A stretch of 35,571 nt of DNA from a virus. Position numbers and translations under genes: made by a program. The stretch lies in the IMG/VR virus record IMGVR_UViG_3300048924_000196; one strand, given 5' to 3'. A model generated the notes under the pieces. The model was given only the letters and a program-made list of their open reading frames with translations, ran no database searches and was not told the DNA's origin. Position 1 is the first letter of the stretch; each line of letters opens with the position of its first letter. This document shows, one piece after another, positions 2,687 through 30,674 of this stretch.

Positions 2687-2706
2687 AATGGCTTAACAAG
2701 GATCGG

Positions 2707-2739
2707 AAAAGCCCCGCCTTAACAACGCGGGGCCTTTTA
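2707..2739. terminator. Bidirectional rho-independent terminator between convergent repA and Q. The CTTAACAAC motif forms its loop.
   Basis: aaaa-GCCCCGC-cttaacaac-GCGGGGC-ctttta: 7-bp GC stem with A-run and T-run flanks. Confidence 0.8.
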
Positions 2740-2740
2740 T

Positions 2741-3820
2741 TTACTTCGCGACCCCTTGCGCCGGAATAATCCGGTACGTGTTGAACCGCACAACCTCTTC
2801 GCCTGCGAAGTCATTGAGAGCCGTGAACCGGCGCTGCAATGGCTCAATCTCGTTCGTGGCAAACACAGCGGTGGCAGTGTCTGATGCGCCCATGCCGCCT
2901 GACGTGCCTTGCGCCGGTACGATGCCGATCAATTGGCCCGGTATGCGGTGCGCCGCAAGCAAGTCGTCACGAGTAACATTCTTGATGTTAAAGAACTCGT
3001 CTTTGGCGCTCGCCTCACTCAGCGGAATCAATTTGATGGAATCCGGCTTGCCGCCCGGTGCATACATGAACAGGTTTTTCCATGCGCCGATACCCTTACC
3101 CGATTTGAACGCGTCCCGAAGCCGGTCAATGTCATCTTGCGATTGCCCCGCATCCGACATGTAAAAGATGTAGCCCGAACTGCCGCCGCGCTCGTGATAC
3201 TTGCGCCGGAACAGCGTAGCCGATTCGTTGAGCCACGCACTGTTAAGCGCGCCCAAGTATTCCGGCAAGCCGTAGACCTCTTGGTTAATGTCCGGCTCCA
3301 TCATGTGATGCAGTTCGGGAAACTCGTATTCGATCTGCGTCGCCGCGCTGATCTGCAAGAATCGCTGAAGATCGGTCGTGCGACGCACGTATTTCGATGG
3401 CGCACGTTTGAATGCCATCGTGCCGCCAAGCCTGTTCTTTCTCGGCTCCATATAGCCGTTGCCAAACACGAGGTAATCAAGCGCCCACTTGTCGAATTCC
3501 TCGCGCGACAGAAGCTTATGAGGGATGAACGTAGAGGAAAGCACGTTACGTTTGAAGTAGATCGCGCTCGAATGATGTACGCCCGCGCGGAACGATTTCG
3601 AGAGCCCCGAAAACGAGATCGGCGGTTCGTACCATTGGCCGTTCGACCACGCTTGCACGTAGTCGAGAATTTCGGCGCGGTCCATGACGGGTATCGGATC
3701 GTCAAACGAGAATGCCTCAACGCGTGCCGGTGCGTGCTCGGCGCTGTCCGGTCGTGCGCCTGGTGAGGGTGCGGACATATCTGCGTTGATGGTCGTGGCG
3801 CGCATGCGTCGCTTGCTCAT
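2741..3820 (-). CDS. Q: Portal protein (P2 gpQ-like)
   Basis: 359 aa. Overlaps and is co-oriented with the terminase large subunit, divergent from O-N-M-L as in P2. Size matches gpQ. Confidence 0.85.
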   Translation of the reverse strand: MSKRRMRATTINADMSAPSPGARPDSAEHAPARVEAFSFDDPIPVMDRAEILDYVQAWSNGQWYEPPISFSGLSKSFRAGVHHSSAIYFKRNVLSSTFIPHKLLSREEFDKWALDYLVFGNGYMEPRKNRLGGTMAFKRAPSKYVRRTTDLQRFLQISAATQIEYEFPELHHMMEPDINQEVYGLPEYLGALNSAWLNESATLFRRKYHERGGSSGYIFYMSDAGQSQDDIDRLRDAFKSGKGIGAWKNLFMYAPGGKPDSIKLIPLSEASAKDEFFNIKNVTRDDLLAAHRIPGQLIGIVPAQGTSGGMGASDTATAVFATNEIEPLQRRFTALNDFAGEEVVRFNTYRIIPAQGVAK

Positions 3821-5643
3821 GAAAACTCCATAATGGATTCGGGGCGGCTGTCAGCGCCCGCAAAGGGTTCGTTATCTAGTGCGTGCATCAACGACCACGC
3901 TACATCAGCATGTCCGACCTCTTTGCTACGCGATGCCTCGTATGTGACCTTTTGGCCGGATGCCGTCATGGTCTTTTTGATCGAGAGCAGAGAGGCGGAA
4001 ACATCCGTCCATGACGTGTCGTACTCAAGACGGCCTTTCGTGATGATGTTGAGCGCCTTAATAACAAGGCGCGACTTCACTTCCGGCGAATACGTGATTG
4101 CGACGACACGAGGGAAAAACATCTTGACGTTCTGGTGAACGCCATGCCCGATACCCGTTACGTCGATGCCGATATACGTGACGTTGTATTGAAGGGTGAT
4201 GGCTTTGATTGCTGCTGCTTGCGCTTCGAAGTCCATGCCCCTGAATTGCTGGCGATGGAGCAAGCGAAACTTGCCGCCCGGTACATCAGGCGGCGCAACG
4301 ACAGTCAACGCGGCACTGTCGCCGCTCAACGCAGGGTCATAGCCAACCCATACCGGTTTATTACCGAACGGGCGGGGCATGAGCGGCTTGAAATCGTGCG
4401 ACCACACATCCCATGAATCGACCATGCATCGCTGCAACTCCGCGAGCGAGAACAGCGATTCCCCCTCGTCCAGAAAGTTGCACATGTATAGCTGCTCGAA
4501 GTCGCGCGGATTGTTCTCACGCAAAATCTGTTCGAGCGTGACGAGATTAAGACCGGCTGCAAGCGCGTCTTTGATCGTGCAAATCTGTCGCCAGTGGTAA
4601 TCGCTGCAAAGCATGCCCTTAACAAGGCGCGCATGCGATGTATCGATGGCAACGTGATCGGCTTTCGGTCGACCTTCGTTATAGTTTTCGCCGGACCATA
4701 CGCGATAGTACGGATGCGCTTTTGATGACGGCGTGGTGAAGAACGTTTTCCGAAAGCGCGTATGAGTCGCCATAGCGCCAGCAAGCTTGTACATTTCGTC
4801 AAACTTGGGCAACCATCCGCATTCATCGATATAGCAATCGGCGGGGCGTCCCTGTGCGGTGCGGCTGTTCGTGCCCAAGTAGTGCATGGTGGCGTTGCCG
4901 CCTTTCGCCCCAACGCCCTTAATTGTGATCGTGTCGCCGCCCGTTAATTCGCGGTCCAGCACTTCCGCAATGAAGTTCTTCTGATAGCGCTGGAATTGGA
5001 ACGCCTGAGCTTTTGACGCGGAGATAAACGCTTGATCGTTGCCGGTCGTAATGCAACGATCAAGCGCCTCGTGCGCGAAGTAGAACGTCGCGCCGATCTG
5101 ACGCGACTTGAGGATATTCCGCTGACGTTCAGACCCGGCGCGATACCAAACCTTCTGATAGTCGAATATGGTGTCCATGAATGCCTCATGGATTTTCTTG
5201 ACCTCTTCGTCCGTGAACTCGTTTCCGATTTCCTTGCGCGGTGCCTTGCGAGCCTTAACAAGGCGCTCGGCCACGTTCGGGTTCAAGTCGCTCTCTTTCC
5301 CCGTTTCGCCGTACTTGTTCACGCGTGCAGTGCGCTCAACCTGCCGCATTAGCAAGTCAATCTCTTTGAAGTCGCCGCCCGTCTTTACCTCTTTCGCGAT
5401 CAGCATGCAAAGGCGCGTCTCAATGGCGCTCTCAACCTTTTGCAATGGCGTTGCTTCGTCCCATTTATCGCGCTGCTTCCATGCTTCGATAGTGGGGCGC
5501 TTGATGCCAAGGTGCTTTGAGATGGACGTGACGCGCCACCCCTGCCAATACAGGGAGCGCGACATCTTTCGCGGGTCCATGATGTCTTGCGGCGATTTGA
5601 TGGCCGGTTCGTCGTCGCGTTCGTGGTGAGCGGCATTTTCCAT
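3817..5643 (-). CDS. P: Terminase large (ATPase/nuclease) subunit (P2 gpP-like)
   Basis: 608 aa. KSRQIGATFYFAHEALD ATPase motif typical of gpP. N-terminal HTH segment (ISKHLGIKRPTIEAWKQRDKW). Confidence 0.9.
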   Translation of the reverse strand: MENAAHHERDDEPAIKSPQDIMDPRKMSRSLYWQGWRVTSISKHLGIKRPTIEAWKQRDKWDEATPLQKVESAIETRLCMLIAKEVKTGGDFKEIDLLMRQVERTARVNKYGETGKESDLNPNVAERLVKARKAPRKEIGNEFTDEEVKKIHEAFMDTIFDYQKVWYRAGSERQRNILKSRQIGATFYFAHEALDRCITTGNDQAFISASKAQAFQFQRYQKNFIAEVLDRELTGGDTITIKGVGAKGGNATMHYLGTNSRTAQGRPADCYIDECGWLPKFDEMYKLAGAMATHTRFRKTFFTTPSSKAHPYYRVWSGENYNEGRPKADHVAIDTSHARLVKGMLCSDYHWRQICTIKDALAAGLNLVTLEQILRENNPRDFEQLYMCNFLDEGESLFSLAELQRCMVDSWDVWSHDFKPLMPRPFGNKPVWVGYDPALSGDSAALTVVAPPDVPGGKFRLLHRQQFRGMDFEAQAAAIKAITLQYNVTYIGIDVTGIGHGVHQNVKMFFPRVVAITYSPEVKSRLVIKALNIITKGRLEYDTSWTDVSASLLSIKKTMTASGQKVTYEASRSKEVGHADVAWSLMHALDNEPFAGADSRPESIMEFS

Positions 5644-5798
5644 GCACGCATTGTCGTGCTTCTAACGGGCAGATAGTTGACCTGTCAGATGTCCCGGAAG
5701 CGCTTACAAACGCCGCACGTTGGCGGAAATTAAGGCCGCGTCCATGATGGTGATTCGCGGAATTAGTCCGTGTCCCTTAACAACATTCTGGAGTGAGC

Positions 5799-6752
5799 AT
5801 GATGAAAAACCCGTGGCGCGTCGCGTTGATGGGCGTTGCATTGGCGGCGCTGGCGTGCGTGGCGCAAGTGGCGTTCGCGCACAACCTTGTGCCGGTCGAC
5901 GTGATGGGCGCGGCTGGCGTGGCGCTGATGGGCGTTGGTAGCACGGCAAGCGTTGACCTTGCAAAGTCGAAGATGTTTCGCGTTGCTGTCGAGGGTGCAA
6001 CCATCGACGGGCGCACCATCGACCGGGCATGGTTGACGCAAGCGGCGGCGCAATATAACCCGACCGTCTACGGCGCGCGCGTGAACATGGAACACATCCG
6101 TGGTTACAGCGCTAACAGCGACTTCAAGGCGTACGGCGACGTGCTGGAGCTGTCGGCAAGCGAGATTACAGAAGGTCCGCTTAAGGGAAAGATGGCGCTA
6201 TACGCGTCGATTCAACCGACAGCCGATCTGGTGAAGCTTAACAAGGCAGGCCAAAAGATCTATACCTCGTGCGAGTTCAACCCGTCGTTTGCTGACACAA
6301 AGCAAGCCTATCTGACGGGCTTGGCCGTGACGGACAACCCGGCATCGCTCGGAACTCAAGTCCTTTCTTTCTCCGCTGCACATCCGACGACGAACCTTTT
6401 TTCGGAAGCGCTGGAAACGTCCATCGAGTTCGAAGAACAGAAAACGTCGATCGTTTCGGAACTGCTGTCGAAGGTCACGGCAATGCTGTCGAAGAAGCCG
6501 GATACGCCGGAAGTCGCAAAGCATTTCGCTGACGTGTCGGAGGCTGTCGAAGCCGTTGCGAATCACTCGGCACAGCAGGCGACGGCCATCGAAAATCTGT
6601 CGTCGCAACTCGCGACGGAGAAGGCGCGCGGCGACAAGCTCGCGACGGAATTCAGTGAACTCGTGCAGAAGCTCAACGCGACGGACGGCGGCGCACATCG
6701 CCCGAACGTCACGGGAAACGCGGGAGGCGGCGCAGCAGTAACCGACTGCTGA
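5799..6752 (+). CDS. O: Capsid scaffold/protease (P2 gpO-like) with an unusual hydrophobic N-terminal extension of about 58 aa
   Basis: From SKMFRVAVEGATIDGRTI... onward it aligns with gpO as I recall it (FFRIGVEGDTCDGR, VNMEHIRGY, YTSCEFNPSFA, LAVTDNPASLGT). GGAG at 5790-5793 precedes the ATG at 5799. Alternative start ATG at 5973. Confidence 0.85.
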   Translation: MMKNPWRVALMGVALAALACVAQVAFAHNLVPVDVMGAAGVALMGVGSTASVDLAKSKMFRVAVEGATIDGRTIDRAWLTQAAAQYNPTVYGARVNMEHIRGYSANSDFKAYGDVLELSASEITEGPLKGKMALYASIQPTADLVKLNKAGQKIYTSCEFNPSFADTKQAYLTGLAVTDNPASLGTQVLSFSAAHPTTNLFSEALETSIEFEEQKTSIVSELLSKVTAMLSKKPDTPEVAKHFADVSEAVEAVANHSAQQATAIENLSSQLATEKARGDKLATEFSELVQKLNATDGGAHRPNVTGNAGGGAAVTDC

Positions 6753-6830
6753 TCACATCAACGCATCACAGATTCGCATTGCTTTAGCACAACCTTCTTA
6801 ACAAGACGCCCCAACGGGCACGGAGTATAA

Positions 6831-7838: not shown

Positions 7839-7900
7839 GCAGTCTCGTGGCGGGCGCTTGTTAAGGCCCGTCTCTTAAAACCCAACTTCCGGATAGAACA

Positions 7901-8548
7901 ATGACCAGCCCCGCCCGCCGACACTTCCAGATGGTTACGGCGCGAATTGCCGCAGAGAAAGCAGGCGACGCGCCTGTTATGAGCGGCAACGCGTACGACA
8001 TGATGCTTGTGAAGCTCCACGCTGATCGCGTGCGCCTGAAAGCCGTTAGATCTGTCGTCGCAAAAGTCGGCGTGAAAGTGAAGGTGCTGCCTGAATATGT
8101 GTCGTACGTGGATGGCGCATTGGCAGGCGGGCGGGGCGCACAGGATGACGTTCTAACCACAATCATGCTGTGGCGTATCGACGTGGGCGACTTCGATGGA
8201 GCGCTTGCTATCGGTGAATACGCGATCAAGCACAACATGACTCTTGCCGACGACTTCAAGCGCGATCTTCCTACGGCGCTTGTCGAGGAAATCTCGGACG
8301 CTGCTCTTTCGACGCTCGAAACCACGCCTGTATCTATCCGCCAACTTCAGCAAGTTGAATTCCTGACCGGTGCAAAGGACATGCACGACCAAGTGCGCGC
8401 CAAGCTTAACAAGGCGCTGGGCGTCGCTAACCAAAAGGCGGGCGAACTCGCCGCCGCACTTGAATACTTCAAGCGCGCGCTGACGCTCGACAAGCGCAGC
8501 GGCGTAAAACAAGACATTGCGCGGCTTGAAAAGCTGCTGCAAGCCTGA
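7901..8548 (+). CDS. M: Terminase small subunit (P2 gpM-like)
   Basis: MTSPARRH..., YDMMLVKLHADRVRLKA, GAQDDVLTTIMLWRIDVGDFDGAL and DQVRAKLNK parallel gpM. Confidence 0.9.
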   Translation: MTSPARRHFQMVTARIAAEKAGDAPVMSGNAYDMMLVKLHADRVRLKAVRSVVAKVGVKVKVLPEYVSYVDGALAGGRGAQDDVLTTIMLWRIDVGDFDGALAIGEYAIKHNMTLADDFKRDLPTALVEEISDAALSTLETTPVSIRQLQQVEFLTGAKDMHDQVRAKLNKALGVANQKAGELAAALEYFKRALTLDKRSGVKQDIARLEKLLQA

Positions 8549-8568
8549 GTCCCCGCGACCGGGCGGCA

Positions 8569-9976: not shown

Positions 9977-10530
9977 TCTACACCGCAGCGGCAACCCTGC
10001 TTGGCGTTGAAGTCGCATTGATTCACGCCGTTGCCGAGGTCGAAAGCAAAGGCGCGGGTTTCCTTGACGCGCACCGACCGAAAATACTTTTCGAACGTCA
10101 CTGCTTTTACAAGGCGCTCAAAGCAAAGGGCGCTGACGCCGATGGATTCGCCACGCGTATGCCGGACATCTGCAACCCGGTAGCGGGCGGATACGAGGGC
10201 GGCGCGCACGAATACGACCGGCTCGAAATTGCGGCAACCATCGACCACGCCGCCGCATACGAGTCGGCATCGTGGGGCGCGTTTCAAATCATGGGCTTCC
10301 ACTGGAAAGCGTTGGGATACGCCTCAATCGATGACTTTGTCAGCGAAATGCACGAGTCAGAAGAGGCGCAGTTAGACGCGTTCGTGCGGTTCGTGAAAGC
10401 AAGTCCGAAACTTGTTAAGGCGCTCAAGACGAAAGACTTTGCGGCGTTCGCGGAGGGCTACAACGGCGAGGAATACCGCAAGTTCGCCTATGACACAAAG
10501 ATGGCCGCTGCATACCGGAGATACGCGTAA
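9973..10530 (+). CDS. Endolysin, N-acetylmuramidase (DUF3380/Muramidase family)
   Basis: ALIHAVAEVESKGAGF...ILFERHCF and SWGAFQIMGFHW motifs. ATG at 9973 overlaps the upstream stop (ATGA). Confidence 0.85.
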   Translation: MIYTAAATLLGVEVALIHAVAEVESKGAGFLDAHRPKILFERHCFYKALKAKGADADGFATRMPDICNPVAGGYEGGAHEYDRLEIAATIDHAAAYESASWGAFQIMGFHWKALGYASIDDFVSEMHESEEAQLDAFVRFVKASPKLVKALKTKDFAAFAEGYNGEEYRKFAYDTKMAAAYRRYA

Positions 10531-10970
10531 TGGAATTTCTTGAGCCGTACATTGCAAAGATCGGCATTGCGCTCGCGGCGATTGCTGCCGCAATAGCGAT
10601 GTGGTTCTACGTTCAATCGCTGCGTTCGGATGTGACTGTGGCGAAAGACGCGGCGAGCAAGGCGCAGCAAATCGCAGACGATCGTGGCGCGACGATTGCC
10701 GATATGCAGAAGAAGCAGCGCGAGCAGGCGGACGCGCTTAACAAGCTGGACAAGCAACGCGCTGACATCGCCGCGCAACTGTCCAAGACTCAATCCGATT
10801 TCGAGGCGTTGAAACGTGAAAACAAGCAAGTGCAAAAGTGGGCTGCTCATGCTGTGCCTGACCCTGTCGGCGTGTTCTACAGCCGTCCAGCCGTCGCCGG
10901 ATACGCGGCGTACGCTGCAATGCGCGCCGGTGAGCCCGTGCAACCTGTCGGCGGTAACGATTCGAAGTAA
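10530..10970 (+). CDS. i-spanin (Rz-like)
   Basis: N-terminal TM helix (IALAAIAAAIAMWFYV) followed by a charged coiled-coil. Directly follows the endolysin. Confidence 0.8.
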   Translation: MEFLEPYIAKIGIALAAIAAAIAMWFYVQSLRSDVTVAKDAASKAQQIADDRGATIADMQKKQREQADALNKLDKQRADIAAQLSKTQSDFEALKRENKQVQKWAAHAVPDPVGVFYSRPAVAGYAAYAAMRAGEPVQPVGGNDSK

Positions 10971-12051: not shown

Positions 12052-12705
12052 ATGAACACTGAAACACAGCGCCAGAGTTTGAACGGCATTCGAGAGGGGT
12101 CCGTAATGGAGGTAAGCGGATCGCTTTGCCGTGTCGAATCGGGCGGGATTGAAACGGACTGGATTAAATGGTTTGTGCCGATGGCTGGCGAGTCAATCGA
12201 ATGGTCCGCGCCGTCCGTTGGGGAGTCTGTGGTGCTGCTTTGCCCTAGTGGTGATACCGCGCAAGGTTTCGCGCTGCGCGGTTATTACAGCGATGAATTC
12301 CCGCCCCCTTCGGAAGACCCGAATAAACACCTTCGTGTGTATAAGGACGGCGCATCGGTCGAATACGACATGGCGGCGCACAAGTTCACGATCGATTTGC
12401 CGGGTGGCGGGCAAGTCGTCGTAAACGCCGCTGACGCCGCGACGGTCAACGCCAAGAAAGCAGACGTGAACGCCGATGCAATCACGCTAAACGGCGACAC
12501 GACAGTTACAAAGACGCTGCTTGTTAAGGGTGCGTTGACGTTCGAATCCGGTATGACCGGCAAGGGCGGCGCGGATGGCGGAAAGACGATGAAGATTGAC
12601 GGTGAAGCCGAATATACAGGCGAAGTAAGCGCGCGCGGCATCAAGCTTTCGACGCACGTTCACACAGAACAGGGTGACGGCAAAGACGTGAGCGCGCCGA
12701 AATGA
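12052..12705 (+). CDS. V: Baseplate spike/assembly protein (P2 gpV-like)
   Basis: 217 aa, first gene of the V-W-J-I-H-G block. The C-terminal HVHTEQGDG motif is typical of spike proteins. Confidence 0.85.
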   Translation: MNTETQRQSLNGIREGSVMEVSGSLCRVESGGIETDWIKWFVPMAGESIEWSAPSVGESVVLLCPSGDTAQGFALRGYYSDEFPPPSEDPNKHLRVYKDGASVEYDMAAHKFTIDLPGGGQVVVNAADAATVNAKKADVNADAITLNGDTTVTKTLLVKGALTFESGMTGKGGADGGKTMKIDGEAEYTGEVSARGIKLSTHVHTEQGDGKDVSAPK

Positions 12706-13981: not shown

Positions 13982-14529
13982 CGTTCCGCTCGCTGCTGCC
14001 GCCGAATTCGACCATTCACGAGCGCGCGCTTGAATTCGCGTCGTCACGTGTCGGTGACATTCCTATCCCGCTGGAACTGCTTAACGATCCGCAGAATATT
14101 CCTCTGTCGATGTTGCCTTACCTCGCGTTCGGGCGCGGCATCGATAGCTGGTCATCGGACTGGCCGGAGCAGGTGAAGCGGGCGCGCGTCGCGCAGGCGA
14201 TACCCATCGCTCGACGCAAAGGCACCGTGTCAGCCGTTGAGGATGTCGTTGCGGCGTTCGGCGCGGCGGTGTCCATTCGCGAATGGTGGGAAACCACGCC
14301 GCAAGGCACGCCCGGAACGTTTGACGTGGTGTTGACGGTGTCGGCGCGTGATGGCAAATCGCCTACCGCTGCATACGTTGCTGACATCGTGGCGGAAATC
14401 GACCGCGTGAAGCCCTTAACAAGGCATTACACATTTACACAGGGCGTCCAGCTACAAGCGGACATCGGAATAATCGGGGCGGCACGCTTCGCCGTGTTTG
14501 CGCGCCTCTCATTGACGGAGAAGGTATGA
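13978..14529 (+). CDS. I: Baseplate/tail protein (P2 gpI-like)
   Basis: 183 aa. LLPPNSTIHERALE N-terminus typical of gpI. Synteny. Confidence 0.9.
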   Translation: MTFRSLLPPNSTIHERALEFASSRVGDIPIPLELLNDPQNIPLSMLPYLAFGRGIDSWSSDWPEQVKRARVAQAIPIARRKGTVSAVEDVVAAFGAAVSIREWWETTPQGTPGTFDVVLTVSARDGKSPTAAYVADIVAEIDRVKPLTRHYTFTQGVQLQADIGIIGAARFAVFARLSLTEKV

Positions 14530-17700: not shown

Positions 17701-17755
17701 CAAGACGTGGCCGGAGTATATCCGGTCTGCTTTCACCTGACAGGAGCATCACACA

Positions 17756-22622: not shown

Positions 22623-22799
22623 TCAGAACTGCATTCGAACGTCACTCGGCACGTGATACGTCTTGCCGCATTCGTCGCACTCGTGATTCCTGCCGCGCGG
22701 ATCAATCAGCCAGCCATCCTGTCGCGCGTCGCAGTGCGGACAATCAAGCGTGCAATCGTTGACCGTCAATCGCTCGACGCTTTTATTCTCTCCGCTCAT
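22623..22799 (-). CDS. 58-aa zinc-ribbon protein (CPHC...CDEC), below the ORF-track cutoff
   Basis: Hand translation: MSGENKSVERLTVNDCTLDCPHCDARQDGWLIDPRGRNHECDECGKTYHVPSDVRMQF*. ATGA overlap with the upstream ORF. Followed by a terminator. Confidence 0.6.
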   Translation of the reverse strand: MSGENKSVERLTVNDCTLDCPHCDARQDGWLIDPRGRNHECDECGKTYHVPSDVRMQF

Positions 22800-23086
22800 G
22801 CCGCAACCTCGCTCGTGAGTCCAGCCGCTTGCATGAACGCCGTAACGCTCTCCATATGAGCCGTCGACGCCGCCATGAGATTGCCTATCGTTGCGTCTTG
22901 CTGTTCGATGAACTGGCGCTGATCGGCAAGACGCGATTCGAGGTACGCGACACGCAAATTCAATGCATTGATGCGCGCCTCGTCTTCTGTGACGCGCTTT
23001 GCGGCTTGCTCAATGCATCGTTGCTGGTGAGGCGATGTACGCTTTCCGTATTCGCGCAGATTGGCAGCGAGTTGCTTCGCTTTCAT
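22796..23086 (-). CDS. 96-aa coiled-coil protein, function unknown
   Basis: Heptad-like EDEARINALNLRVAYLESRLADQRQFIEQQDATIGNL. ATGA overlaps on both sides. Confidence 0.6.
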   Translation of the reverse strand: MKAKQLAANLREYGKRTSPHQQRCIEQAAKRVTEDEARINALNLRVAYLESRLADQRQFIEQQDATIGNLMAASTAHMESVTAFMQAAGLTSEVAA

Positions 23087-23304
23087 TGACCATCCCCCAT
23101 CATATCCGCCATCTTAATAAGGCGCGCGCCAAGGTCGCGCGCTTCGGCGGAAGTCATTTCGAGCGAGAATCCAGAACGGATAGACGGGTCATTGGTCGTG
23201 AGCAGGCGAAGCGTTACCGAGTCAAGCGCCTTTGTTCCGATGACGCCGGATAGGCACTCGACCATTGCTTTGCTGCGGCGGCTGAATCGTTCCGATGCTT
23301 TCAT
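23083..23304 (-). CDS. 73-aa protein, function unknown
   Basis: ORF translationally coupled (ATGA) to both neighbours. No recognisable motif. Confidence 0.5.
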   Translation of the reverse strand: MKASERFSRRSKAMVECLSGVIGTKALDSVTLRLLTTNDPSIRSGFSLEMTSAEARDLGARLIKMADMMGDGQ

Positions 23305-23978
23305 GCTGACGCCCCCAATTGAACGGCCATCGAAGCCAGCGACGAAAGGGGCGAGCCTTTTGCCACGCGAGCGGCGCGAAGCTTCGCGACCATGCGCGAC
23401 TGAGTGGGGCGCACTTCAGCGAACAACGCCACGCGACGCGATACCGGCTTCTCTGCGTCTACACCTTCACCGGCCTTGTAGATGGCGACGCAGTCATACA
23501 CCGAACTTGTGTCCGATTGCCAGCCGGAGATGTGAATCAGCGATGCCGCCCGGAGTTTATTCACGTGATACAGCGCCGAATTACGCACTACGCCGACCAT
23601 CGATGCGACCTCGCCCGCCGTCATCGGCAGAGCGAGCGCCTTTAAAATTCGTGCAGCAGCGCCGTCTATCGTGCCAGCCGGACACACGGCATTCTTTCCC
23701 GGACCGAACGCATACACCGCAAACCGCGACTTGTCGCGCGCCTTACCTGCATCCCATCGCAATATATGCGACTCACCATCGGCAACGGCACGGTTAAGGT
23801 TCGAGCGAACGCTTTCGATGTGCATGCCCGTTAAAGACGACAGGTCACGAGCGCTTGCGCCCATCTCGCCGGACGCTTTGAGCAGCGACATGATGTATTC
23901 GCGGTTAGATTGCGGGGCGATTTGACCCAAGCTGTAACGCGTTCCCGAAGCTGCGCTCAATGCAATGCTGATATCCAT
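23301..23978 (-). CDS. Tandem winged-helix (2 x wHTH) DNA-binding protein
   Basis: ATG at 23978 with an AGGA Shine-Dalgarno. Internal duplication: YIMSLLKASGEMGASARDLSSLTGMHIESVRSNLNRAVADGESHILRW and ARILKALALPMTAGEVASMVGVVRNSALYHVNKLRAASLIHISGW. Confidence 0.65.
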   Translation of the reverse strand: MDISIALSAASGTRYSLGQIAPQSNREYIMSLLKASGEMGASARDLSSLTGMHIESVRSNLNRAVADGESHILRWDAGKARDKSRFAVYAFGPGKNAVCPAGTIDGAAARILKALALPMTAGEVASMVGVVRNSALYHVNKLRAASLIHISGWQSDTSSVYDCVAIYKAGEGVDAEKPVSRRVALFAEVRPTQSRMVAKLRAARVAKGSPLSSLASMAVQLGASA

Positions 23979-24063: not shown

Positions 24064-24092
24064 CTTGTTAAGATTATTGACACCTTGTTAAG
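24064..24092. promoter_or_regulatory. Two direct copies of CTTGTTAAG 20 bp apart, bracketing a TTGACA hexamer (24077-24082) in the divergent promoter region. Candidate operator.
   Basis: catCTTGTTAAGattaTTGACAcCTTGTTAAGcc read directly, between divergent starts at 23978 (-) and 24150 (+). Confidence 0.55.
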
Positions 24093-24149
24093 CCTCAGGC
24101 AAGATTCGTCTTGCGGTACAGGACACGAATAAACACAGGGGAACACGAA

Positions 24150-24426: not shown

Positions 24427-24478
24427 ACTGAGAGGGCATTTCGCCCGATCCACCACGCGCCAAAGCGCAAGGAACCAC

Positions 24479-25096
24479 ATGAAAATCATTCACACCCCGA
24501 TCAGCAAGCGAAACCCGGTCATCGACTCGGAAATCAATAGCCTGTTTGGTTGCGCTCGCGATATCGACGGCAATCGCACGCTCAACCTCAACCTCTCTAA
24601 CGGCACCGGCACGGTCTACATTTCGATGACGCAAGCCGAAGCGACGGCTATGGCCTCGACTATGGCGAGCCCGGATGCGAGCGTTGCGGCAGTGGCAACC
24701 GGCGTGCTGGCCGAAGTCGCCGGAGAGCGTTCGCGTCAAATCCTGACGAAGGGCTACACGCAGGCATTCGACGACAAGCGCACACCCGGCGAACTGGCGG
24801 CGGCGGGCAGCGCTTACGCGATAAAAGCGGCTTGCGGGATTCACCCCAGCTATACAGAGGTTGACCCGAACACGCCGCCCACTATCTGGCCGTGGGCAGC
24901 GAAGGCGTTCAAGCCCGACGACGCGCGAACGAACCTGATCAAAGCCGCAGCGCTGATCATCAGCGAGATTGAGCGGATGGACCGCGATGCACTGGCAGCA
25001 GCGCACGAAGCGGCAGCGGCAGAAGAACAGGCGGCAGCGCAAGCAGCAGCGGCGGCGATTGCAGCGGCAGCGGCATCGTCTAACCCTTCGGCTTAA
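24479..25096 (+). CDS. 205-aa phage protein of unknown function with a low-complexity Ala/Gln tail
   Basis: ATG at 24479 with an AAGGA Shine-Dalgarno. The central segment ERSRQILTKGYT..DD..TPGELAAAGSAYA...WPW..KAFKP.D.RTNLIKAAALIISEIERMDR resembles a domain I recall seeing repeatedly in phage proteins. Family not confidently named. Confidence 0.6.
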   Translation: MKIIHTPISKRNPVIDSEINSLFGCARDIDGNRTLNLNLSNGTGTVYISMTQAEATAMASTMASPDASVAAVATGVLAEVAGERSRQILTKGYTQAFDDKRTPGELAAAGSAYAIKAACGIHPSYTEVDPNTPPTIWPWAAKAFKPDDARTNLIKAAALIISEIERMDRDALAAAHEAAAAEEQAAAQAAAAAIAAAAASSNPSA

Positions 25097-25147
25097 CAAC
25101 GCTAACGCCGGGTTTATACCCGGCAACTCACACGCAAAGGCAATGTC

Positions 25148-25357
25148 ATGACAAAGATTTCCGCGAAGCCCCTCGTCAATAAGCCGGTATCGATCGGCAT
25201 GCCCCCGGAGTACGTCGCAGCGTTGAAAAAGGAGCTTCCGAAGCGCGGTTACGTGTCCCTGTCGGAGTTCGTCCGCGAACTGATCGAAGCCAATTCGCCG
25301 CAATGCGCGGTGATCAAACGGCACGCTGAGCGCGGCACCGCCAAGGCGCGCAAGTGA
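25148..25357 (+). CDS. Ribbon-helix-helix (CopG/Arc-like) DNA-binding protein
   Basis: KPVSIGMPPEYVAALKKE...VSLSEFVRELI fits the beta-alpha-alpha RHH pattern. Confidence 0.65.
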   Translation: MTKISAKPLVNKPVSIGMPPEYVAALKKELPKRGYVSLSEFVRELIEANSPQCAVIKRHAERGTAKARK

Positions 25358-25542
25358 AGCGCCTGTGCAACCGCACGGACGGCCTTTTGGCCGTCGCTGC
25401 GCTACTCATTCTCGCGGCTTCCATCCTCAACAGCCACAGCAACAGGGGCAATCATGTATGTGATCGACCGGGCAACGCCGCCCCAAGTATTCAGCGCGAC
25501 GGTGCCCGCCAATTCCACGGTGATCGGCGTTATCAAACCTAA
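25354..25542 (+). CDS. Possible small membrane protein (62 aa, GTG start coupled GTGA to the RHH gene)
   Basis: TM helix LLAVAALLILAASIL. Third-position GC is high only in the first 33 codons or so. The 3' part overlaps the next gene out of frame. Confidence 0.3.
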   Translation: MKRLCNRTDGLLAVAALLILAASILNSHSNRGNHVCDRPGNAAPSIQRDGARQFHGDRRYQT

Positions 25543-25729
25543 GATCGGCGGGGCGGCGTTCGGCGGCGTTTTAGTGCATTTCGAGCGCGCCGACATGTAC
25601 GCGATGGTTGTTAATGGCCGGATGAAGCCCATCGAGCAGCACGCAGCCCGCAAGGCGCATCAGGCCGAACAAGCCTTCGCCCAAGCGTTCGCAGACACAT
25701 TCTTTGACATGGACGAGGCAACGGCATGA
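25454..25729 (+). CDS. 91-aa protein, function unknown
   Basis: ATG preceded by AGGGG. ATGA overlap with the P-loop gene. Confidence 0.55.
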   Translation: MYVIDRATPPQVFSATVPANSTVIGVIKPKIGGAAFGGVLVHFERADMYAMVVNGRMKPIEQHAARKAHQAEQAFAQAFADTFFDMDEATA

Positions 25730-26628
25730 AAGTAATCGAAACGCCCATCACAACAGCCGTCATCATTTACGGTCCGAAGGGCAGCGGCAAGACGACACAC
25801 GCGGCAGCGCTCGCCGCGCACTACGGAAAATCGCGCATCGTTGACGACTTCAAGCCGTCTAGCGCGGGATACCGGCGCGTCATCGACATGCCGTCCGACA
25901 CGCTGTTTATACTCAGTGGCGAGGGACCGGAGCGCACCGACCCCGGCAAAGACGCGTTCGTGCACATCTACCACGCGTGCAAGGCAGCGGGCATCGACCC
26001 GCATCCGATGTTTTACGGCTTGGGCATGACGCCGGTATATATCGCGTTCGAACCGGGCACCGAAGCGAAACGAGAGTTTCAAATTGCCTTTGAGAGGTCG
26101 CGCAGCATGCGCCAGTTGCCCAAGCTTTTCGCGTACGAACCCGGCACCGAACCGCAGCGCACCCGAACATCCGAATGGTTCGCACAGGAATACATGCTGC
26201 GCCCGAAGACCCCGCCCGTGTCGCACGAGTTCAACCCGCGCATCATGCCGGACCGCATGAGCGGCTTGCATTACGACTACCCGGACCGCAGCGGCATGGA
26301 CGCGGAAGCACTCAAGGCATTCGACCGGGCTCGATATGAGTGCGCCGCCGCACTCGCCGCGATGGTTTCGGCAATCGTCGCGCTGGATTTCATCGAGCGC
26401 CCGCGCGCAATTCAAGAGGCGTTCGAAATGCGTGAGGCGCACAAGGGCTGCGCGTATTACCTGCCTGAGTCGTTCGCGCTTCAGTTCGAACGGCAGCGCC
26501 GGTATTACCGCGACTTGCGCAACGGCAGCGGGTACGGGCGGCATGCGTACCTGAATGGACTGTGGCACGGCTGGCGCATGGCAATCGAAGCCGCGTGTCT
26601 CGCTCACGACACCAAAACCGTTTCTTAA
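25726..26628 (+). CDS. 300-aa protein with an N-terminal P-loop (Walker A GPKGSGKT) and an uncharacterised C-terminal domain
   Basis: VIIYGPKGSGKTTHAAALAAHYG at residues 12-34. Possible Walker B TLFILSGE. No named family recognised for the remainder. Confidence 0.65.
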   Translation: MKVIETPITTAVIIYGPKGSGKTTHAAALAAHYGKSRIVDDFKPSSAGYRRVIDMPSDTLFILSGEGPERTDPGKDAFVHIYHACKAAGIDPHPMFYGLGMTPVYIAFEPGTEAKREFQIAFERSRSMRQLPKLFAYEPGTEPQRTRTSEWFAQEYMLRPKTPPVSHEFNPRIMPDRMSGLHYDYPDRSGMDAEALKAFDRARYECAAALAAMVSAIVALDFIERPRAIQEAFEMREAHKGCAYYLPESFALQFERQRRYYRDLRNGSGYGRHAYLNGLWHGWRMAIEAACLAHDTKTVS

Positions 26629-26659
26629 CAACGTTCCACGGCACACAACAGGGGTGAAC

Positions 26660-27022
26660 ATGAAAGCAACAAAACGCGTCATCGTCATCACGGCAGTATC
26701 CACGGCTGTCGCGCTGGCCACTGTCGCACTGGCTAACAAGGCGCGCGCCGCGAGCGTGGATGACTACCACGCGTGCCAGTCACAAGCTCGTGTCGGCGCG
26801 GTGGCCGCTGACGCCAATCGCCGTCACATGAGCCGTGACCGCGCCCGCGCCGCCGTCCTGCTGGCCATTCGCGAGTCCGACGAAGACCGCGACACGCAAG
26901 CCGGTATGCGTGCATTAACGAGCAGGGTTATTCAAACGGTGTACGCCCAAGGCATCCGCGACACCGCCGCAGGCAAGCGCCTCGCCCTCAACGCGTGCCT
27001 CGACATGGCCGATGGAATGTGA
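26660..27022 (+). CDS. Secreted/periplasmic small protein (120 aa)
   Basis: Signal peptide MKATKRVIVITAVSTAVALATVALANKARA-AS with an AxA cleavage site. Last gene before a terminator. Confidence 0.6.
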   Translation: MKATKRVIVITAVSTAVALATVALANKARAASVDDYHACQSQARVGAVAADANRRHMSRDRARAAVLLAIRESDEDRDTQAGMRALTSRVIQTVYAQGIRDTAAGKRLALNACLDMADGM

Positions 27023-27103
27023 TGAATCGAGCGGCTTGCTCGCGCGACAAAGAACAGGACTAGCGGCAAAAGGATGGGGCCTAACAACGCTGCGCCTTAG
27101 CAC

Positions 27104-27138
27104 ACGCCGGGTTTCCGAAGGGTTTCCCGGCGTTTTTC
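27104..27138 (+). terminator. Rho-independent terminator ending the plus-strand cargo operon
   Basis: acgccggg-N14-cccggcgttttt. Confidence 0.7.
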
Positions 27139-27185
27139 ATTGGACGCACCGACCGCCGCAACGGCCCCGGACAGCTGACATTTAC

Positions 27186-27228
27186 GTACGTACACAAATA
27201 TGTTGCGGACCCGCATTTGTGTACGTAC
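27186..27228. promoter_or_regulatory. Perfect 14-bp inverted repeat GTACGTACACAAAT-N15-ATTTGTGTACGTAC directly upstream of brnT. Probable BrnA operator.
   Basis: Read directly. The right arm ends 10 nt before the brnT ATG. A TACAAT hexamer lies at 27227-27232. Confidence 0.6.
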
Positions 27229-27237
27229 AATAATCAC

Positions 27238-27507
27238 ATGGAAATCGAATTCGATCCCGCCAAAGACGCGGAAAACCAAATAAAGCACGGCATCCCGCTG
27301 TCGCTCGCTGCATCCTTCGAATGGGACGCAGCACAGGTGCAAGTAGACGATCGTTTCGACTACCGGGAAACGCGCATGGTTGCTATCGGCCCGATTGGTG
27401 ATCGCATTCATGTGCTCGTGTACACGATGCGCGGAGAAACCTTGCGTCCAATCAGCCTGCGCAAAGCAAACCGTAGAGAGGTTCTTAAATATGTCGACCA
27501 AGCGTAA
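27238..27507 (+). CDS. brnT: BrnT-family (DUF497) ribonuclease toxin
   Basis: MEIEFDPAKDAENQIKHGIPL....FEWD...VQVDDRFDYRETRMVAIGPIG..IHVLVYTMRGETLRPISLRKANRREV matches the BrnT pattern. Confidence 0.85.
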   Translation: MEIEFDPAKDAENQIKHGIPLSLAASFEWDAAQVQVDDRFDYRETRMVAIGPIGDRIHVLVYTMRGETLRPISLRKANRREVLKYVDQA

Positions 27508-27841
27508 GTTTCATATTCCATCGGACGCCGAAGATTCGGCCATCACGCGCGCGGCAGAGAGCGACCCGGACAACCCGCCCATCACTGACGCCGAATTCAA
27601 GCGAATGAAGCCCGCGCGCGAAGCGCTTCCGGCTCTCGTTGGCGACAAGGTTGCAGGGGAGTTATTGAAGCGGCGAGGACGCCGCCCGTTGCCAGCCGAT
27701 GAACGCAAAGTTCCAACAACGCTGCGTCTAGACCCGGATGTGCTGGACGCGTTCAAGGCAACCGGCGATGGGTGGCAAACACGCGCTAACGACGCGTTGC
27801 GCGCGTGGGCAAAATCACATCGCATGCTTCCGTCCAGATAG
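27491..27841 (+). CDS. brnA: BrnA-family (DUF4415) antitoxin
   Basis: RGRRPLPADERKVPTTLRLDPDVLDAFKATGDGWQTRANDALRAW is the BrnA C-terminal signature. Overlaps brnT by 17 nt. Confidence 0.85.
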   Translation: MSTKRKFHIPSDAEDSAITRAAESDPDNPPITDAEFKRMKPAREALPALVGDKVAGELLKRRGRRPLPADERKVPTTLRLDPDVLDAFKATGDGWQTRANDALRAWAKSHRMLPSR

Positions 27842-27871
27842 TCACAACGCGGGGCACGTTAAGCTGTGATG

Positions 27872-27902
27872 AAAGGGGCGGGCCTACAGGGCTTGCCCCT
27901 TT
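27872..27902. terminator. Hairpin between convergent brnA and the recombinase gene (aaaggggc-N15-gccccttt)
   Basis: 8-bp stem read directly. It overlaps the last recombinase codons. Confidence 0.45.
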
Positions 27903-28585
27903 GTATTTTGCATGCCGCACAGTGCGTCTACCCGCTTAACAAGGGCGCTGATTCCCGCAAGCGACCATCGATTGCCGCGCGATGTAGTGATTCCAAGGTT
28001 ATTCAAATGCGCGACCATATGGCGTTGTGTAAGTCCAGCGGCGCGCATTGCATTGACTTCATGCGCCATCGACATAGCGAAGGCGTCGGCACCCTCTACA
28101 AGCCGCGCGTTTGCCGCCGCTATGTTCGCCGCGCCGGTCGTGCCGAGCTTCACGCCTCGCGCTTTCGCCGCTCTCAGTGCATCTTTCGTGCGCTCGCTTA
28201 TCCGCTTCGCTTCGAACTGTCCGAATGCGGCCATTAGATGAATCGTGAACTCGTTTGCTTCGGGCAAGTCGAGCGCCCGAAATTTCACGCCACTTTCCAT
28301 CAATGTGGCGATGAACAGGACGTTACGCGCCAATCTGTCGAGCTTGGCGACGACTAGCGTAGCTTTTTCGGCTTTGGCGTGTGCCAGTGCAGCGGCAAGC
28401 TGCGGACGCTTGTTAAGAGCGTTTGCGCCTTTGCCCGTTTCGACTTCGATGTATTCACCGACCATCGATGCGCCCGTTGCCGACAGGTGATTGCGGATCG
28501 CGTCTTGCTGCGCCTCGAGTCCGAGCCCTGACATTCCTTGGCGTTGTGTGGATACGCGGATATACGCAACGATGCGGCCTGACAT
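27884..28585 (-). CDS. Small serine recombinase (resolvase/invertase family)
   Basis: IVAYIRVSTQRQ catalytic-serine motif, LVVAKLDRLARN, FGQFEAKRISERTKDAL, and a C-terminal HTH. Confidence 0.9.
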   Translation of the reverse strand: MSGRIVAYIRVSTQRQGMSGLGLEAQQDAIRNHLSATGASMVGEYIEVETGKGANALNKRPQLAAALAHAKAEKATLVVAKLDRLARNVLFIATLMESGVKFRALDLPEANEFTIHLMAAFGQFEAKRISERTKDALRAAKARGVKLGTTGAANIAAANARLVEGADAFAMSMAHEVNAMRAAGLTQRHMVAHLNNLGITTSRGNRWSLAGISALVKRVDALCGMQNTKGQAL

Positions 28586-28685
28586 GCTTCACTCCTGGGC
28601 TAACGGAACAAGCTGAACGAACGTCCAGCACACGAACAGCGCCGCGAACAATACCCTGGAGTCCGAACAATCGTCAACTTGTTAA

Positions 28686-28748
28686 TGACAGTCAATCACT
28701 TCCGAATGCGTTTTTGACAAATCGACCGATTTTGTACTGACAGATTGA
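28686..28748. promoter_or_regulatory. Three TGACA-containing repeats (TGACAGTCAAT 28686, TTGACAAATCG 28714, TGACAGATTGA 28738) upstream of the recombinase gene. Candidate res/crossover or operator sites.
   Basis: Read directly. The outer pair share TGACAG followed by mutually complementary pentamers (TCAAT/ATTGA). Confidence 0.3.
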
Positions 28749-28800: not shown

Positions 28801-29007
28801 TTAGTGCGTGCCGAACGTGCGCCTTAGATTGGCCCGGAAATTCTTGATAGCTCGCCAGTCTGACGCACTGATAGGCGCTGGCATCCATGCGCCTGAGCCA
28901 TCGACAACGCGCATATGCTTTCCGCCGCGCTCGACAGAAAGCCGCTTTCCAGTGCGCCCCATGTATTCATCGAGCGCGGCGCGGAATTCCCGTTTTAGCG
29001 ATTTCAC
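28801..29007 (-). CDS. 68-aa basic protein translationally coupled (GTGA) to the CI-like repressor. Weak HicA-like resemblance.
   Basis: The GTG at 29007-29005 overlaps the CI stop TGA at 29006-29004. KSLKREFRAAL...GGKHMRVV..G...MPAPIS...IKNFRANLRR loosely parallels HicA (K..EF...L...G..H......G....P.H...I......I.KQL). Confidence 0.5.
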   Translation of the reverse strand: MKSLKREFRAALDEYMGRTGKRLSVERGGKHMRVVDGSGAWMPAPISASDWRAIKNFRANLRRTFGTH

Positions 29008-29642
29008 ACGACACCCCGCAAGACGGCAAACGGACGGCCCATGCATACGACGAGGCTGGACGGCACCACGGCAGATTCATATAGCTGGTTATCGACTGCA
29101 AGGCGTATATCACCGTTGTGCAGCGTCATGACACGACGCAGCGACAGCCGGTCGTGAATCGACAGGATGTATAACCCATCGGCCTCAATGTCGCGGAATC
29201 GCGTGTCTATCAGCACGAGTTCGCCAACGCCTACAGTGGGATGCATGGCGTTGTCTTCGCATACCCACGCCGTAGCGCAATCCGGGTCCGCGCCGAACCG
29301 ACGAATAAATTCTGTGTTGAGCATCGCGAACGCCGGATGCGCGCGAAGCATGTCCGGCTGTACGCCAGGCGGAAGCAGCGGCACCGCCGAAAGACCCTCG
29401 CCCGAATCCATGCGCCCGGTCAAAAGCCAATCGACCGACACGGGACGCATTAACGAGACGCGTACGGCCTCGACGTAAGGCACTGAGCCGCGCTTGCGCC
29501 ACTGCGAAAGCGTCGCGCCTGAAAGGCCCAAATTCGCCGCCAATAGTACGTCCGTTTCGCACTGCATCGCCTCTTTCATGCGGTCAATAACTTCACCGGC
29601 GTCCACCGCGCACGAAACCGCATCGTGTTGTTTTCTTTTCAT
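29004..29642 (-). CDS. cI: CI-type prophage repressor (XRE HTH plus S24 LexA-like peptidase domain)
   Basis: HTH LAANLGLSGATLSQWRKRGSVPY. S24 core CEDNAMHPTVGVGELVLIDT...DGLYILSI. ATG at 29642 preceded by GGGAG. Confidence 0.85.
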   Translation of the reverse strand: MKRKQHDAVSCAVDAGEVIDRMKEAMQCETDVLLAANLGLSGATLSQWRKRGSVPYVEAVRVSLMRPVSVDWLLTGRMDSGEGLSAVPLLPPGVQPDMLRAHPAFAMLNTEFIRRFGADPDCATAWVCEDNAMHPTVGVGELVLIDTRFRDIEADGLYILSIHDRLSLRRVMTLHNGDIRLAVDNQLYESAVVPSSLVVCMGRPFAVLRGVV

Positions 29643-29732: not shown

Positions 29733-29745
29733 CACACAGAAGATC

Positions 29746-29925
29746 ATGACACGAAAAAGCATAACGGCCGGACGAATCCCGCTACCACTCACCGCGACGG
29801 AGCTTTCCGACCTGAGAGCGTTGGCAGAGAAAGAGGGGCGGAGTGAGGCACAGATGGTGAAACAGATTTATCTGGACGGCCTTCGAAGTCGCGCACGAGC
29901 GGCACAACGCGGCAGACAGAAGTAA
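29746..29925 (+). CDS. 59-aa ribbon-helix-helix protein at the Cro/Cox position
   Basis: Divergent from cI. IPLPLTATELSDLRALAEKEGRSEAQMVKQIYLDGL fits an RHH fold. Confidence 0.6.
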   Translation: MTRKSITAGRIPLPLTATELSDLRALAEKEGRSEAQMVKQIYLDGLRSRARAAQRGRQK

Positions 29926-29997
29926 AGAGCGCGCAGCGCCTTAACAAGACGTAACAAATTCCGATGATGGACGGGGGTTCACTCGGAGAAATACACG

Positions 29998-30267
29998 ATG
30001 GCACGCGAACAAATCGGCTTCCGTTTCGGTATTCACTGCCCGCACTGCGATTCAAAGACCACGGCGCGGACCTCGAAAGGACTGAGCAGGACACTTCGCG
30101 AGATTGTTTTTCAGTGCAACGACTTCCGCTGCGGACATACGTTCGTGGCAAACCTCGAAGCGGTGCGGACGCTTAGCCCGTCAGCGATGCCTAACGAGGA
30201 TGTGAAGCTCCCGATTTCTGAGCACGTCCGGGAAAGGGTGATGACTCAACTTCAATTACTAGGGTGA
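29998..30267 (+). CDS. ogr: Ogr/Delta-family zinc-finger late-gene activator
   Basis: IHCPHCDSKTTARTS......IVFQCNDFRCGHTF is the Ogr/Delta C-x2-C...C-x4-C pattern. Confidence 0.85.
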   Translation: MAREQIGFRFGIHCPHCDSKTTARTSKGLSRTLREIVFQCNDFRCGHTFVANLEAVRTLSPSAMPNEDVKLPISEHVRERVMTQLQLLG

Positions 30268-30272
30268 ATGAA

Positions 30273-30659
30273 ATGAACAAAATCAAAGTGCCGATGCACG
30301 AAGCCGCTAATAACTTCATCGTGATTCACGCGGCGCGCCTGAGCCGTACGGACCTTATCTTGCAAGCCGTTGACATGATCGTTGACACGCACGAGGTTTC
30401 CCGGCGCACGGCTGAAATCGTTGTGTTGCAGGCTTTCAGCGAGTACGAGGCGGGCAAGTGCGGCGCGTACATCGACGGGTCTTTAACGACCGCGTACGGC
30501 CTGTTTATTCGCGACGTGACCACGGGCACCATGCGGGTATTCAACGTCAACGAACTGGTAGAGCTTGCCCGCAACGGCACCATCAAGTCCATGCCGGTAC
30601 CGTCGCGAACCGAGTTCCTTGCTACCGGATGCATGAGAGCCGAACCTGTAGCCGCTTAA
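30273..30659 (+). CDS. 128-aa protein, function unknown
   Basis: ATG at 30273 after AGGGTG. Stop TAA lies inside a CTTAACAAG copy. Followed by a terminator. Confidence 0.55.
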   Translation: MNKIKVPMHEAANNFIVIHAARLSRTDLILQAVDMIVDTHEVSRRTAEIVVLQAFSEYEAGKCGAYIDGSLTTAYGLFIRDVTTGTMRVFNVNELVELARNGTIKSMPVPSRTEFLATGCMRAEPVAA

Positions 30660-30674
30660 CAAGTATCACACCAA

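Follow-up and report, generated by a model that had tools for sequence, protein, structure and literature searches.

The 9-bp word CTTAACAAG occurs in 19 exact copies, counting both strands, in the virus record IMGVR_UViG_3300048924_000196, a contig of 35,571 nucleotides that was analysed over its whole length and is referred to here as the window. It is probably the recognition site of a DNA-binding protein that the element itself encodes, the likeliest reader being a predicted tandem winged-helix protein of 225 aa, HTH225 (23301-23978, minus strand), and the sites would then form a dispersed regulon of operators or stoperator-like elements. In the proposed mechanism, HTH225 bound in its own promoter region would occupy classical operators, through which it would regulate its own synthesis and repress the rightward operon. 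At around 30 further copies, which are spread over the late, lysis and early operons, the bound protein would block or dampen transcription that escapes the primary switch, and it would do so while the element replicates as a plasmid. We infer the identity of the binder, the repression exerted by its binding and the timing of that repression. We favour HTH225, in which two domains would read one asymmetric site, a situation also found in mycobacteriophage L5 (PMC9283540).

An over-represented and strictly asymmetric motif

From the composition of the window, 0.16 copies of CTTAACAAG are expected in dinucleotide-preserving shuffles (none of the 100 shuffles held more than one copy) and 0.25 under an order-3 Markov model. 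The word ranks first among all 9-mers of the window, and its sub-words head the lists of 7-, 8- and 10-mers. When up to one mismatch is allowed, 34 sites are found as compared with 3.3 expected. These figures bear out an earlier note on this DNA, prepared by a model from the sequence alone, which had described a hyper-abundant 9-mer and suggested exactly such a comparison with a Markov expectation: every coordinate and strand that it gave for the 19 exact copies is correct, its nine variants at an end base are all in place, and the variants that keep only the core or carry insertions or deletions lie at most 1-2 nt from where it had put them. The density of sites is 0.54-0.9 per kb, 0.54 per kb being the figure for exact copies in the window, and the exact sites are split 13:6 between the two strands with no switch point along the replicon.

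The motif is strictly asymmetric and sharply bounded at 9 bp. Directly outside these positions the information content equals the background, both in the window and in its closest relative in IMG/VR (introduced below). Position 6 is an invariant C, whereas position 1 tolerates C or A and position 9 tolerates G or C; in the exact word C1, C6 and G9 are all fixed, and the flanks are not AT-rich. Of the CTTNNNAAG words, CTTAACAAG is found 19-20 times, compared with 3 and 1 for CTTAATAAG. The earlier note had called the motif quasi-palindromic, a resemblance that is probably incidental, since CTTGNCAAG has no copy in the window and the central A is invariant. Because the motif is truly asymmetric, a monomeric or intrinsically asymmetric reader fits it better. 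A hairpin formed by the motif itself was discarded, the flanks being non-complementary in most copies, and DnaA boxes, IHF, CtrA, restriction and recombinase sites were likewise set aside for want of a match in sequence or in arrangement. A second word, CAGCTATA, is found inside genes at 2417, 4487, 16824, 24847, 29080 and 32621 (6 copies as compared with 0.31 expected); as the relative keeps only 2 copies, it probably reflects chance or a codon effect and was set aside.

Restriction to a narrow lineage

The motif belongs to a narrow lineage of elements and not to their host. A search of IMG/VR with the capsid protein returned 80 P2-like loci, of which one, IMGVR_UViG_3300013105_000019 (capsid 91% identical; hereafter the relative), is the only locus enriched in the motif and also the only one to encode an HTH225 homologue, with 72% identity. 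The other 79 loci, which add up to 1.15 Mb and include many from Burkholderiaceae, hold a single copy in total, so that the check in related P2-like phages proposed in the earlier note marks the motif as element-specific. KS14, FLC5 and FLC10, whose architecture is the same as that of the window, have 0-1 copy each. Two more pieces of the lineage came from profile searches, L332 (6.1 kb) and L327 (2.1 kb), whose gpD proteins are 84-86% identical and whose HTH225 allele is 35% identical to that of the window. The TTAACAA core is found 8 times in the 6 kb of L332, including 3 exact 9-mers, and 4 times in the 2.1 kb of L327; in both fragments the HTH225 gene has three copies directly before it and one on its stop codon. 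Additionally, the Paraburkholderia hospita protein GJH39050.1 falls in the 90% cluster of the HTH225 of the relative. Its gene lies on a 35.15-kb contig of its own, BPUT01000055.1 (assembly GCA_022179905.1), and the 20.7 kb of this contig that were read contain 8 exact copies and 11 near ones, with three before the HTH225 gene.

In Paraburkholderia DNA one copy was found in 250 kb, sampled as five 50-kb stretches from P. phymatum pBPHY01 and pBPHY02, the 2.5-Mb replicon of P. caribensis MBA4 (two stretches) and a P. fungorum plasmid, and the Ralstonia plasmid that carries the closest Rep3 in PLSDB has 0 copies. Base composition alone predicts about 31 copies in an 11-Mb genome at 62% GC, and an AT-rich word of this kind is therefore naturally rare in the host. 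A scan of IMG/VR and 185,579 species genomes for two copies within 31 bp gave chance matches among those listed, mostly in low-GC taxa, and revealed no host.

Placement of the sites and selection on the DNA

Intergenic DNA contains or adjoins eight of the 19 exact sites, a 3-fold enrichment for a fraction that makes up 13% of the replicon (P=0.0016), and with the end variants included the proportion is 14 of 28, in agreement with the earlier estimate that about half of the copies are at gene boundaries. Thirteen of these 14 sites point in the direction of local transcription (P=0.002), which substantiates the shared orientation of site and downstream gene that had been noticed by eye. Apart from the pair at the HTH225 promoter, described below, the exact intergenic sites are found 5 nt past the Rep3 stop codon (2692-2700, plus strand; conserved in the relative), between the scaffold and capsid genes in sense orientation (6797-6805, plus; CTTAACAAC in the relative), in a hairpin loop within the gap between the capsid and small terminase genes (7857-7865, minus; conserved, and the only antisense intergenic site), at the end of the sheath gene with a hairpin after it (17696-17704, plus; conserved), in the gap between the Arc-like gene and ogr (29940-29948, plus; conserved, the relative having a second copy that adjoins the ogr ATG) and at the end of orf128, upstream of a terminator and the primase gene (30655-30663, plus; conserved). 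The variant CTTAACAAC occupies the loop of the terminator hairpin that follows rep (2718-2726, plus), a position 17 nt upstream of the scaffold gene O (5776-5784, plus) and the ends of orf205 (25092-25100, plus) and orf300 (26624-26632, plus), while the variant ATTAACAAG lies, again sense, between the CI and resolvase genes (28678-28686, minus). In four cases (17696, 25092, 26624 and 30655) the site supplies the TAA stop codon of the upstream gene, and several sites directly precede terminator-like hairpins or lie in their loops. The TTAACA contained in the motif is not a promoter -35 box, since no -10 element follows at a fixed distance; indeed, no conserved element was found at a fixed distance downstream of the intergenic sites, either in the window or in the relative.

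From the primase gene through the par locus and the origin to rep (30732-35444 and 1-2686; 7.4 kb) there is no exact site, and the relative has the same gap. An avoidance of "maintenance genes" by the sites was considered and judged too weak and post hoc.

The remaining 11 exact sites are inside genes, and 10 of them are read in the frame CTT-AAC-AAG or CTT-GTT-AAG, as the earlier note had described. Its further argument that these use rare Leu and Val codons fails, as CTT accounts for 20% of the Leu codons and GTT for 24% of the Val codons of the element. The claim that selection acts on the nucleic acid and not on the protein nevertheless finds support in the orthologues of the KS14 group. 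Where the window reads L-V-K, the outgroups encode L-A-R in the large terminase gene (4618-4626, plus; antisense, conserved in the relative), L-L-S in the muramidase gene (10411-10419, minus; conserved) and T-V-K in gpV (12520-12528, minus); where it reads L-N-K, they encode M-T-K or L-T-K in the scaffold gene (6237-6245, plus; conserved) and L-H-K in the small terminase gene (8405-8413, plus; conserved). Further changes from outgroup to window are LAQ to LNK, LQR to LNK and PVS to PLT. Since the outgroups encode other residues, the word was written into the genes by means of conservative amino-acid changes. The other coding sites are a second, conserved antisense copy in the large terminase gene (5254-5262, plus), one in the Rz-like gene (10737-10745, plus; GTGAAGCGC in the relative), one in gpI, which is the only coding site in the other frame (P-L-T-R; 14415-14423, plus; ATTAACAAG in the relative), one in the tape-measure gene (18927-18935, plus) and two in the resolvase gene, antisense at 27935-27943 (plus; not conserved in the relative) and sense at 28409-28417 (minus; one base different in the relative).

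The window and the relative share about 80% nucleotide identity over aligned DNA. Twelve of the 17 aligned exact sites are identical in the relative, as compared with 19.8% of all aligned 9-mers (P=8e-6), which answers in the affirmative the question of positional conservation raised in the earlier note. The sites at 10737 and 18927 are private to the window, and the relative has private sites at positions equivalent to 16633, 29989 and 11297 of the window, as well as a third copy at the HTH225 promoter. This combination of conserved and private sites indicates turnover under selection for site number, and the sites are thus under purifying selection with turnover. The 6.1 kb that only the window has, made up of cargo and variable tail genes, contain 0 exact sites where 3.3 would be expected (P=0.03).

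HTH225 and its promoter cluster

The sites at 24064-24072 (minus; conserved in all relatives) and 24084-24092 (minus; conserved) form a pair of direct repeats, 20 bp apart from start to start, that flank a perfect TTGACA -35 hexamer (24077-24082). The first ends 4 nt to the left of this hexamer and the second begins in the spacer, 1 nt past it. Two overlapping divergent promoters are predicted at 24073-24105, one rightward (TTGACA, 17 nt, CAAGAT), leading to orf73b and the following genes including the ribbon-helix-helix (RHH) gene orf69, and one leftward (TTGCCT, 18 nt, AATAAT), a promoter-like element that would serve HTH225; the site pair brackets both and overlaps the leftward one. Across this promoter block the window and the relative are almost the same, although its flanks diverge, and the relative and the P. 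hospita element have their third copy 17-18 bp further on. The arrangement is that of an autoregulated operator. Leftward, the HTH225 operon continues (22623-23304, minus) with three small genes, orf73, orf96 and the zinc-ribbon gene orf58 (phrog_16376), whose presence differs among members of the lineage.

The genes present in the window and the relative and missing from KS14, FLC5 and FLC10 are orf58, orf96, HTH225, orf73b, orf69, orf120, orf63 and the H-NS gene. Because L332 bears the motif and lacks orf73b and orf58, the candidates left are HTH225, found only in motif-bearing elements, orf69 (25148-25357, plus), present in all four members examined and absent from KS14-type phages, and orf120 (26660-27022, plus; fold not recognised), which likewise accompanies the motif in every member examined. 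Other DNA-binding proteins of the element were discarded as binders: KS14, although devoid of the motif, also has Ogr and the Arc-like protein; Rep3 has iterons and the par locus a repeat array of its own; and the CI/Arc promoter region holds no motif copy.

HTH225 matches generic winged helix-turn-helix (wHTH) profiles only (HTH_20, with MarR-like models in its relatives), and these profiles together with an AlphaFold2 model describe it as two MarR/ArsR-like wHTH domains. When predicted from an alignment of 40 sequences, the model has a predicted local distance difference test score (pLDDT) of 85.7, in contrast to 31 with a two-sequence alignment, and places winged helices at residues 25-91 and 106-169, followed by C-terminal helices. 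The best Foldseek matches are tandem winged-helix proteins (ScpB, TFIIIC tauB, RPC34 and SelB), at a template modelling (TM) score of about 0.27, and the likeness is therefore one of architecture only. Residues that are invariant between the 35%-identical alleles (V57, R58, S59, L61, R63 and A64; R132, S134, H138 and L142) concentrate in both predicted recognition helices, which could explain why the site has remained unchanged.

A HMMER search of 1.8 billion representative sequences found 78 relatives of HTH225, mostly of 200-230 aa and with two repeats, whereas a word-indexed protein search returned only the query and one relative, and tblastn against PLSDB plasmids and GenBank phages gave no match. 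One remote member of the family (P0031) is encoded at 10001-10609 of the locus L338, in the early operon of a lambdoid-type prophage and immediately before a PD-(D/E)XK exonuclease and RecT; the family is thus widespread in phages, in varied contexts. In addition, a protein of 1338 aa (P0003) shows 11 consecutive matches to the winged-helix unit of HTH225 and hence a long array of this module.

Weighing the alternatives

Among the three explanations offered in the earlier note, that of dispersed operator or stoperator sites is favoured by the narrow lineage, the copies at the promoter and the purifying selection, although HTH225 is only a candidate binder and orf69 is an alternative to it. Several observations weigh against a regulon read by HTH225. 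For a protein with two domains, 9 bp make a short site; the motif is accompanied by orf69 and orf120 no less consistently than by HTH225; and a 35%-identical allele goes with the same site, which would be uncommon in an immunity repressor. Since a CI/S24 repressor is already present, the need for a second global one is an assumption. Concerning placement, 58% of the exact sites are inside genes, where 6 are sense and 5 antisense, in contrast to the stoperators of L5, which are almost all intergenic and co-oriented. Finally, the absence of sites between primase and rep has P=0.012 post hoc, and the largest gap between sites is unremarkable (P=0.26 in a max-gap test).

The same mechanism may operate with a different binder, the RHH protein orf69 or else orf120, to which a low but appreciable probability is assigned. 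Each of the four members examined has both genes, and KS14, FLC5 and FLC10 have neither. In L332 and L327, orf69 and HTH225 stand next to each other in divergent orientation and enclose the three sites, and in the window the variant site at 25092 lies 47 nt upstream of orf69. The protein is also more conserved (67-77%) than HTH225 (35-72%), which fits an unchanged site, and RHH dimers such as omega and MetJ read short sites of 7-9 bp. Such dimers, however, usually need adjacent repeated subsites, whereas most of the copies are solitary, and the strict asymmetry and invariant centre of the site also argue against an RHH reader. Moreover, orf69 matches the RHH_1 profile only at threshold (E=4e-4; 20.6 bits for a cut-off of 20.5), and orf120 has no recognisable DNA-binding fold.

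It is improbable, although conceivable, that a tandem winged-helix reader uses the sites for a purpose other than transcription, such as compaction or segregation of the plasmid prophage, polar barriers to replication forks or a mark of "self" for exclusion or defence. The lack of orientation preference among the coding sites, the spread of the sites over the late, lysis and early operons and the tandem winged-helix architectural proteins among the best structural matches of HTH225 (ScpB and TFIIIC tauB) would be in keeping with such a role, as would a weak PHROG match of HTH225 to a Ren-like exclusion protein. On the other hand, the structural similarity is generic, the par locus has a centromere-like array of its own, and the clustering at a promoter together with the sense bias of the intergenic sites points to transcription. 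In its boldest form, a long shot in our estimation, the 9-mer would be a replicon-wide "address code", and a new tandem winged-helix family would read it to compact, position or self-mark the plasmid prophage, instead of using it as an operator; selection for this code would have been strong enough to rewrite amino acids of structural genes. We know of no sequence-coded identity system of this type described for phage-plasmids.

Less probable still is an action in RNA, in which the motif, as CUUAACAAG, would be a signal for processing, stability, termination or antitermination at gene ends. The sense bias of the intergenic sites, the four stop codons and the terminator-like hairpins would agree with this. 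However, 11 exact copies lie within genes, 5 of them antisense, where about 0.2 would be expected in total; there is no Rfam match and no conserved flanking structure or sequence, and the promoter-proximal pair is partly upstream of any transcript. Equally remote is the idea, put forward in the earlier note, that the sites are AT-rich nucleation points for the H-NS-domain protein (34133-34438). The motif is indeed AT-rich in DNA of 58% GC, and a homologue of the H-NS gene is found in the relative and in none of the KS14-type phages. Domains of the H-NS type, however, read the minor-groove shape of degenerate AT tracts, whereas the invariant terminal C and G, the sharp boundary at 9 bp and the fixed asymmetric core fit a base-specific readout through the major groove, and no copy lies near the H-NS gene. 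The last of the three proposals, a host-wide signal of uptake, Chi or architecture type acquired by the element, is effectively refuted at the genus level and retains a negligible probability: its density resembles that of uptake sequences in their hosts and some copies lie in terminators, but the motif is practically missing from the Paraburkholderia and Ralstonia replicons sampled, the other P2-like phages and the cargo specific to the window, shows no orientation switch along the replicon and has no dominating genome among the pattern-scan matches listed.

The replicon and its other features

Bases 1-127 of the window are exactly repeated at 35445-35571, which makes the contig a circle that is really 35,444 bp long; the junction of the circle falls within parA (34916-35566). 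With gene calls taken from identical public contigs, the window encodes Rep3 (1928-2686), ParA, a complete P2-type set of morphogenesis and lysis genes, a CI/S24 repressor (29004-29642), Ogr, a 925-aa primase, a resolvase and BrnT/BrnA. No integrase was called in it. It has the architecture of Burkholderia phage KS14 and is a circular KS14-like, P2-type phage-plasmid, and the virus lives as a plasmid in Paraburkholderia soil bacteria. No Rfam families were found in the window.

Two other repeat families, neither of them related to CTTAACAAG, are associated with maintenance. The Rep3 iterons CCAACRTTTTCCGGGT are present at 1753-1809 as three direct copies with a spacing of 20-21 bp, and further repeat regions are located at 1540-1565 and 1896-1930. 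Inverted iteron copies upstream of and over the rep start codon suggest an origin combined with an autoregulatory operator. Shortly before parA, at 143-334, ACATGY hexamers recur densely at a period of 6/12 bp, and the array contains many palindromes; it probably acts as centromere for a type Ib partition system with orf100 or orf60 as the small partner. An Arc-like RHH gene that public gene calls have missed (29746-29925, plus; 59 aa) lies between CI/S24 and ogr, and its product is 50% identical to gp4 of KS14. Finally, the cargo region at 24452-27913 is variable: the window alone has orf205, orf91, the P-loop gene orf300 and BrnT/BrnA, in place of which a ParE/HTH toxin-antitoxin pair is present in the P. 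hospita element.

Comparison with known systems

Genome-wide arrays of repressor sites extending beyond promoters are, to our knowledge, well documented only in cluster A mycobacteriophages, and in a promoter-bound form in P1. The repressors of cluster A (gp71 of L5 and that of TipsytheTRex) recognise more than 20 short asymmetric sites at promoters and in short intergenic gaps within operons (PMC9283540). The window resembles these phages in having more than 20 asymmetric sites over a temperate phage genome, with intergenic sites co-oriented with transcription (13 of 14 in the window), a similar density of about 0.5 per kb and a candidate reader with two DNA-binding domains in one polypeptide. 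It differs from them in the length of the site, 9 bp instead of 13, and in its unrelated sequence, and HTH225, with its tandem winged helices, has no detectable relation to gp71, which combines an HTH with a "stoperator" domain; in searches of the PDB by sequence or fold, the TipsytheTRex repressor was not among the matches listed for HTH225. The biological setting is also different, being that of a P2-type myovirus kept as a plasmid in a Gram-negative Burkholderiaceae host and equipped with a separate CI/S24 repressor.

In P1, the C1 repressor acts on 22 dispersed asymmetric operators of 17 bp, ATTGCTCTAATAAATTT, in 94 kb (PMC8546580). Like P1, the element is a plasmid prophage in which one asymmetric site is scattered over the replicon and the gene of the (candidate) regulator is preceded by its own sites, but the operators of P1 are longer and more thinly spread (0.23 per kb) than the 9-bp motif, and each is placed at the promoter of a discrete operon; Pfam and PHROG scans of HTH225 and its neighbours found no C1-like family. 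KS14 (Kisquattuordecimvirus) persists as a plasmid prophage (PMC3091744) and shares with the window the gene order, P2-like morphogenesis, Rep3, ParA, the CHC2 primase, the CI-like, Arc-like and Ogr proteins and the serine recombinase. Unlike the window, KS14, FLC5 and FLC10 are devoid of HTH225, orf69, orf120, orf73b and the H-NS gene.

Among plasmids, the KorA/KorB proteins of IncP-1 provide a case in which one plasmid regulator has a dozen operators over the replicon, some of them far from promoters. The likeness lies in a plasmid-encoded regulator with dispersed operators, although Kor operators are palindromic, are located at or near promoters and by design not in coding sequences, and KorB belongs to the ParB family. 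Host-wide signals are different in kind. DNA uptake sequences and uptake signal sequences occur at about 1 per kb throughout the host, as opposed to one copy of the motif in 250 kb of Paraburkholderia replicons, and, in contrast to Chi, the motif is not over-represented in Paraburkholderia DNA and has no strand switch point.

If the regulon is as proposed, it would be an independent and unrelated example of dispersed operators, in a Gram-negative P2-type phage-plasmid, and the use of many solitary, short, asymmetric sites would emerge as a recurrent way of silencing a plasmid-borne prophage. A family of small tandem winged-helix proteins from phages, so far uncharacterised and represented by the 78 relatives of HTH225, would also gain a function, and the pair formed by the 9-bp site and its protein might become a tool for work in Burkholderiaceae. 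With the P. hospita isolate, which has an element of this lineage, these proposals are directly testable.

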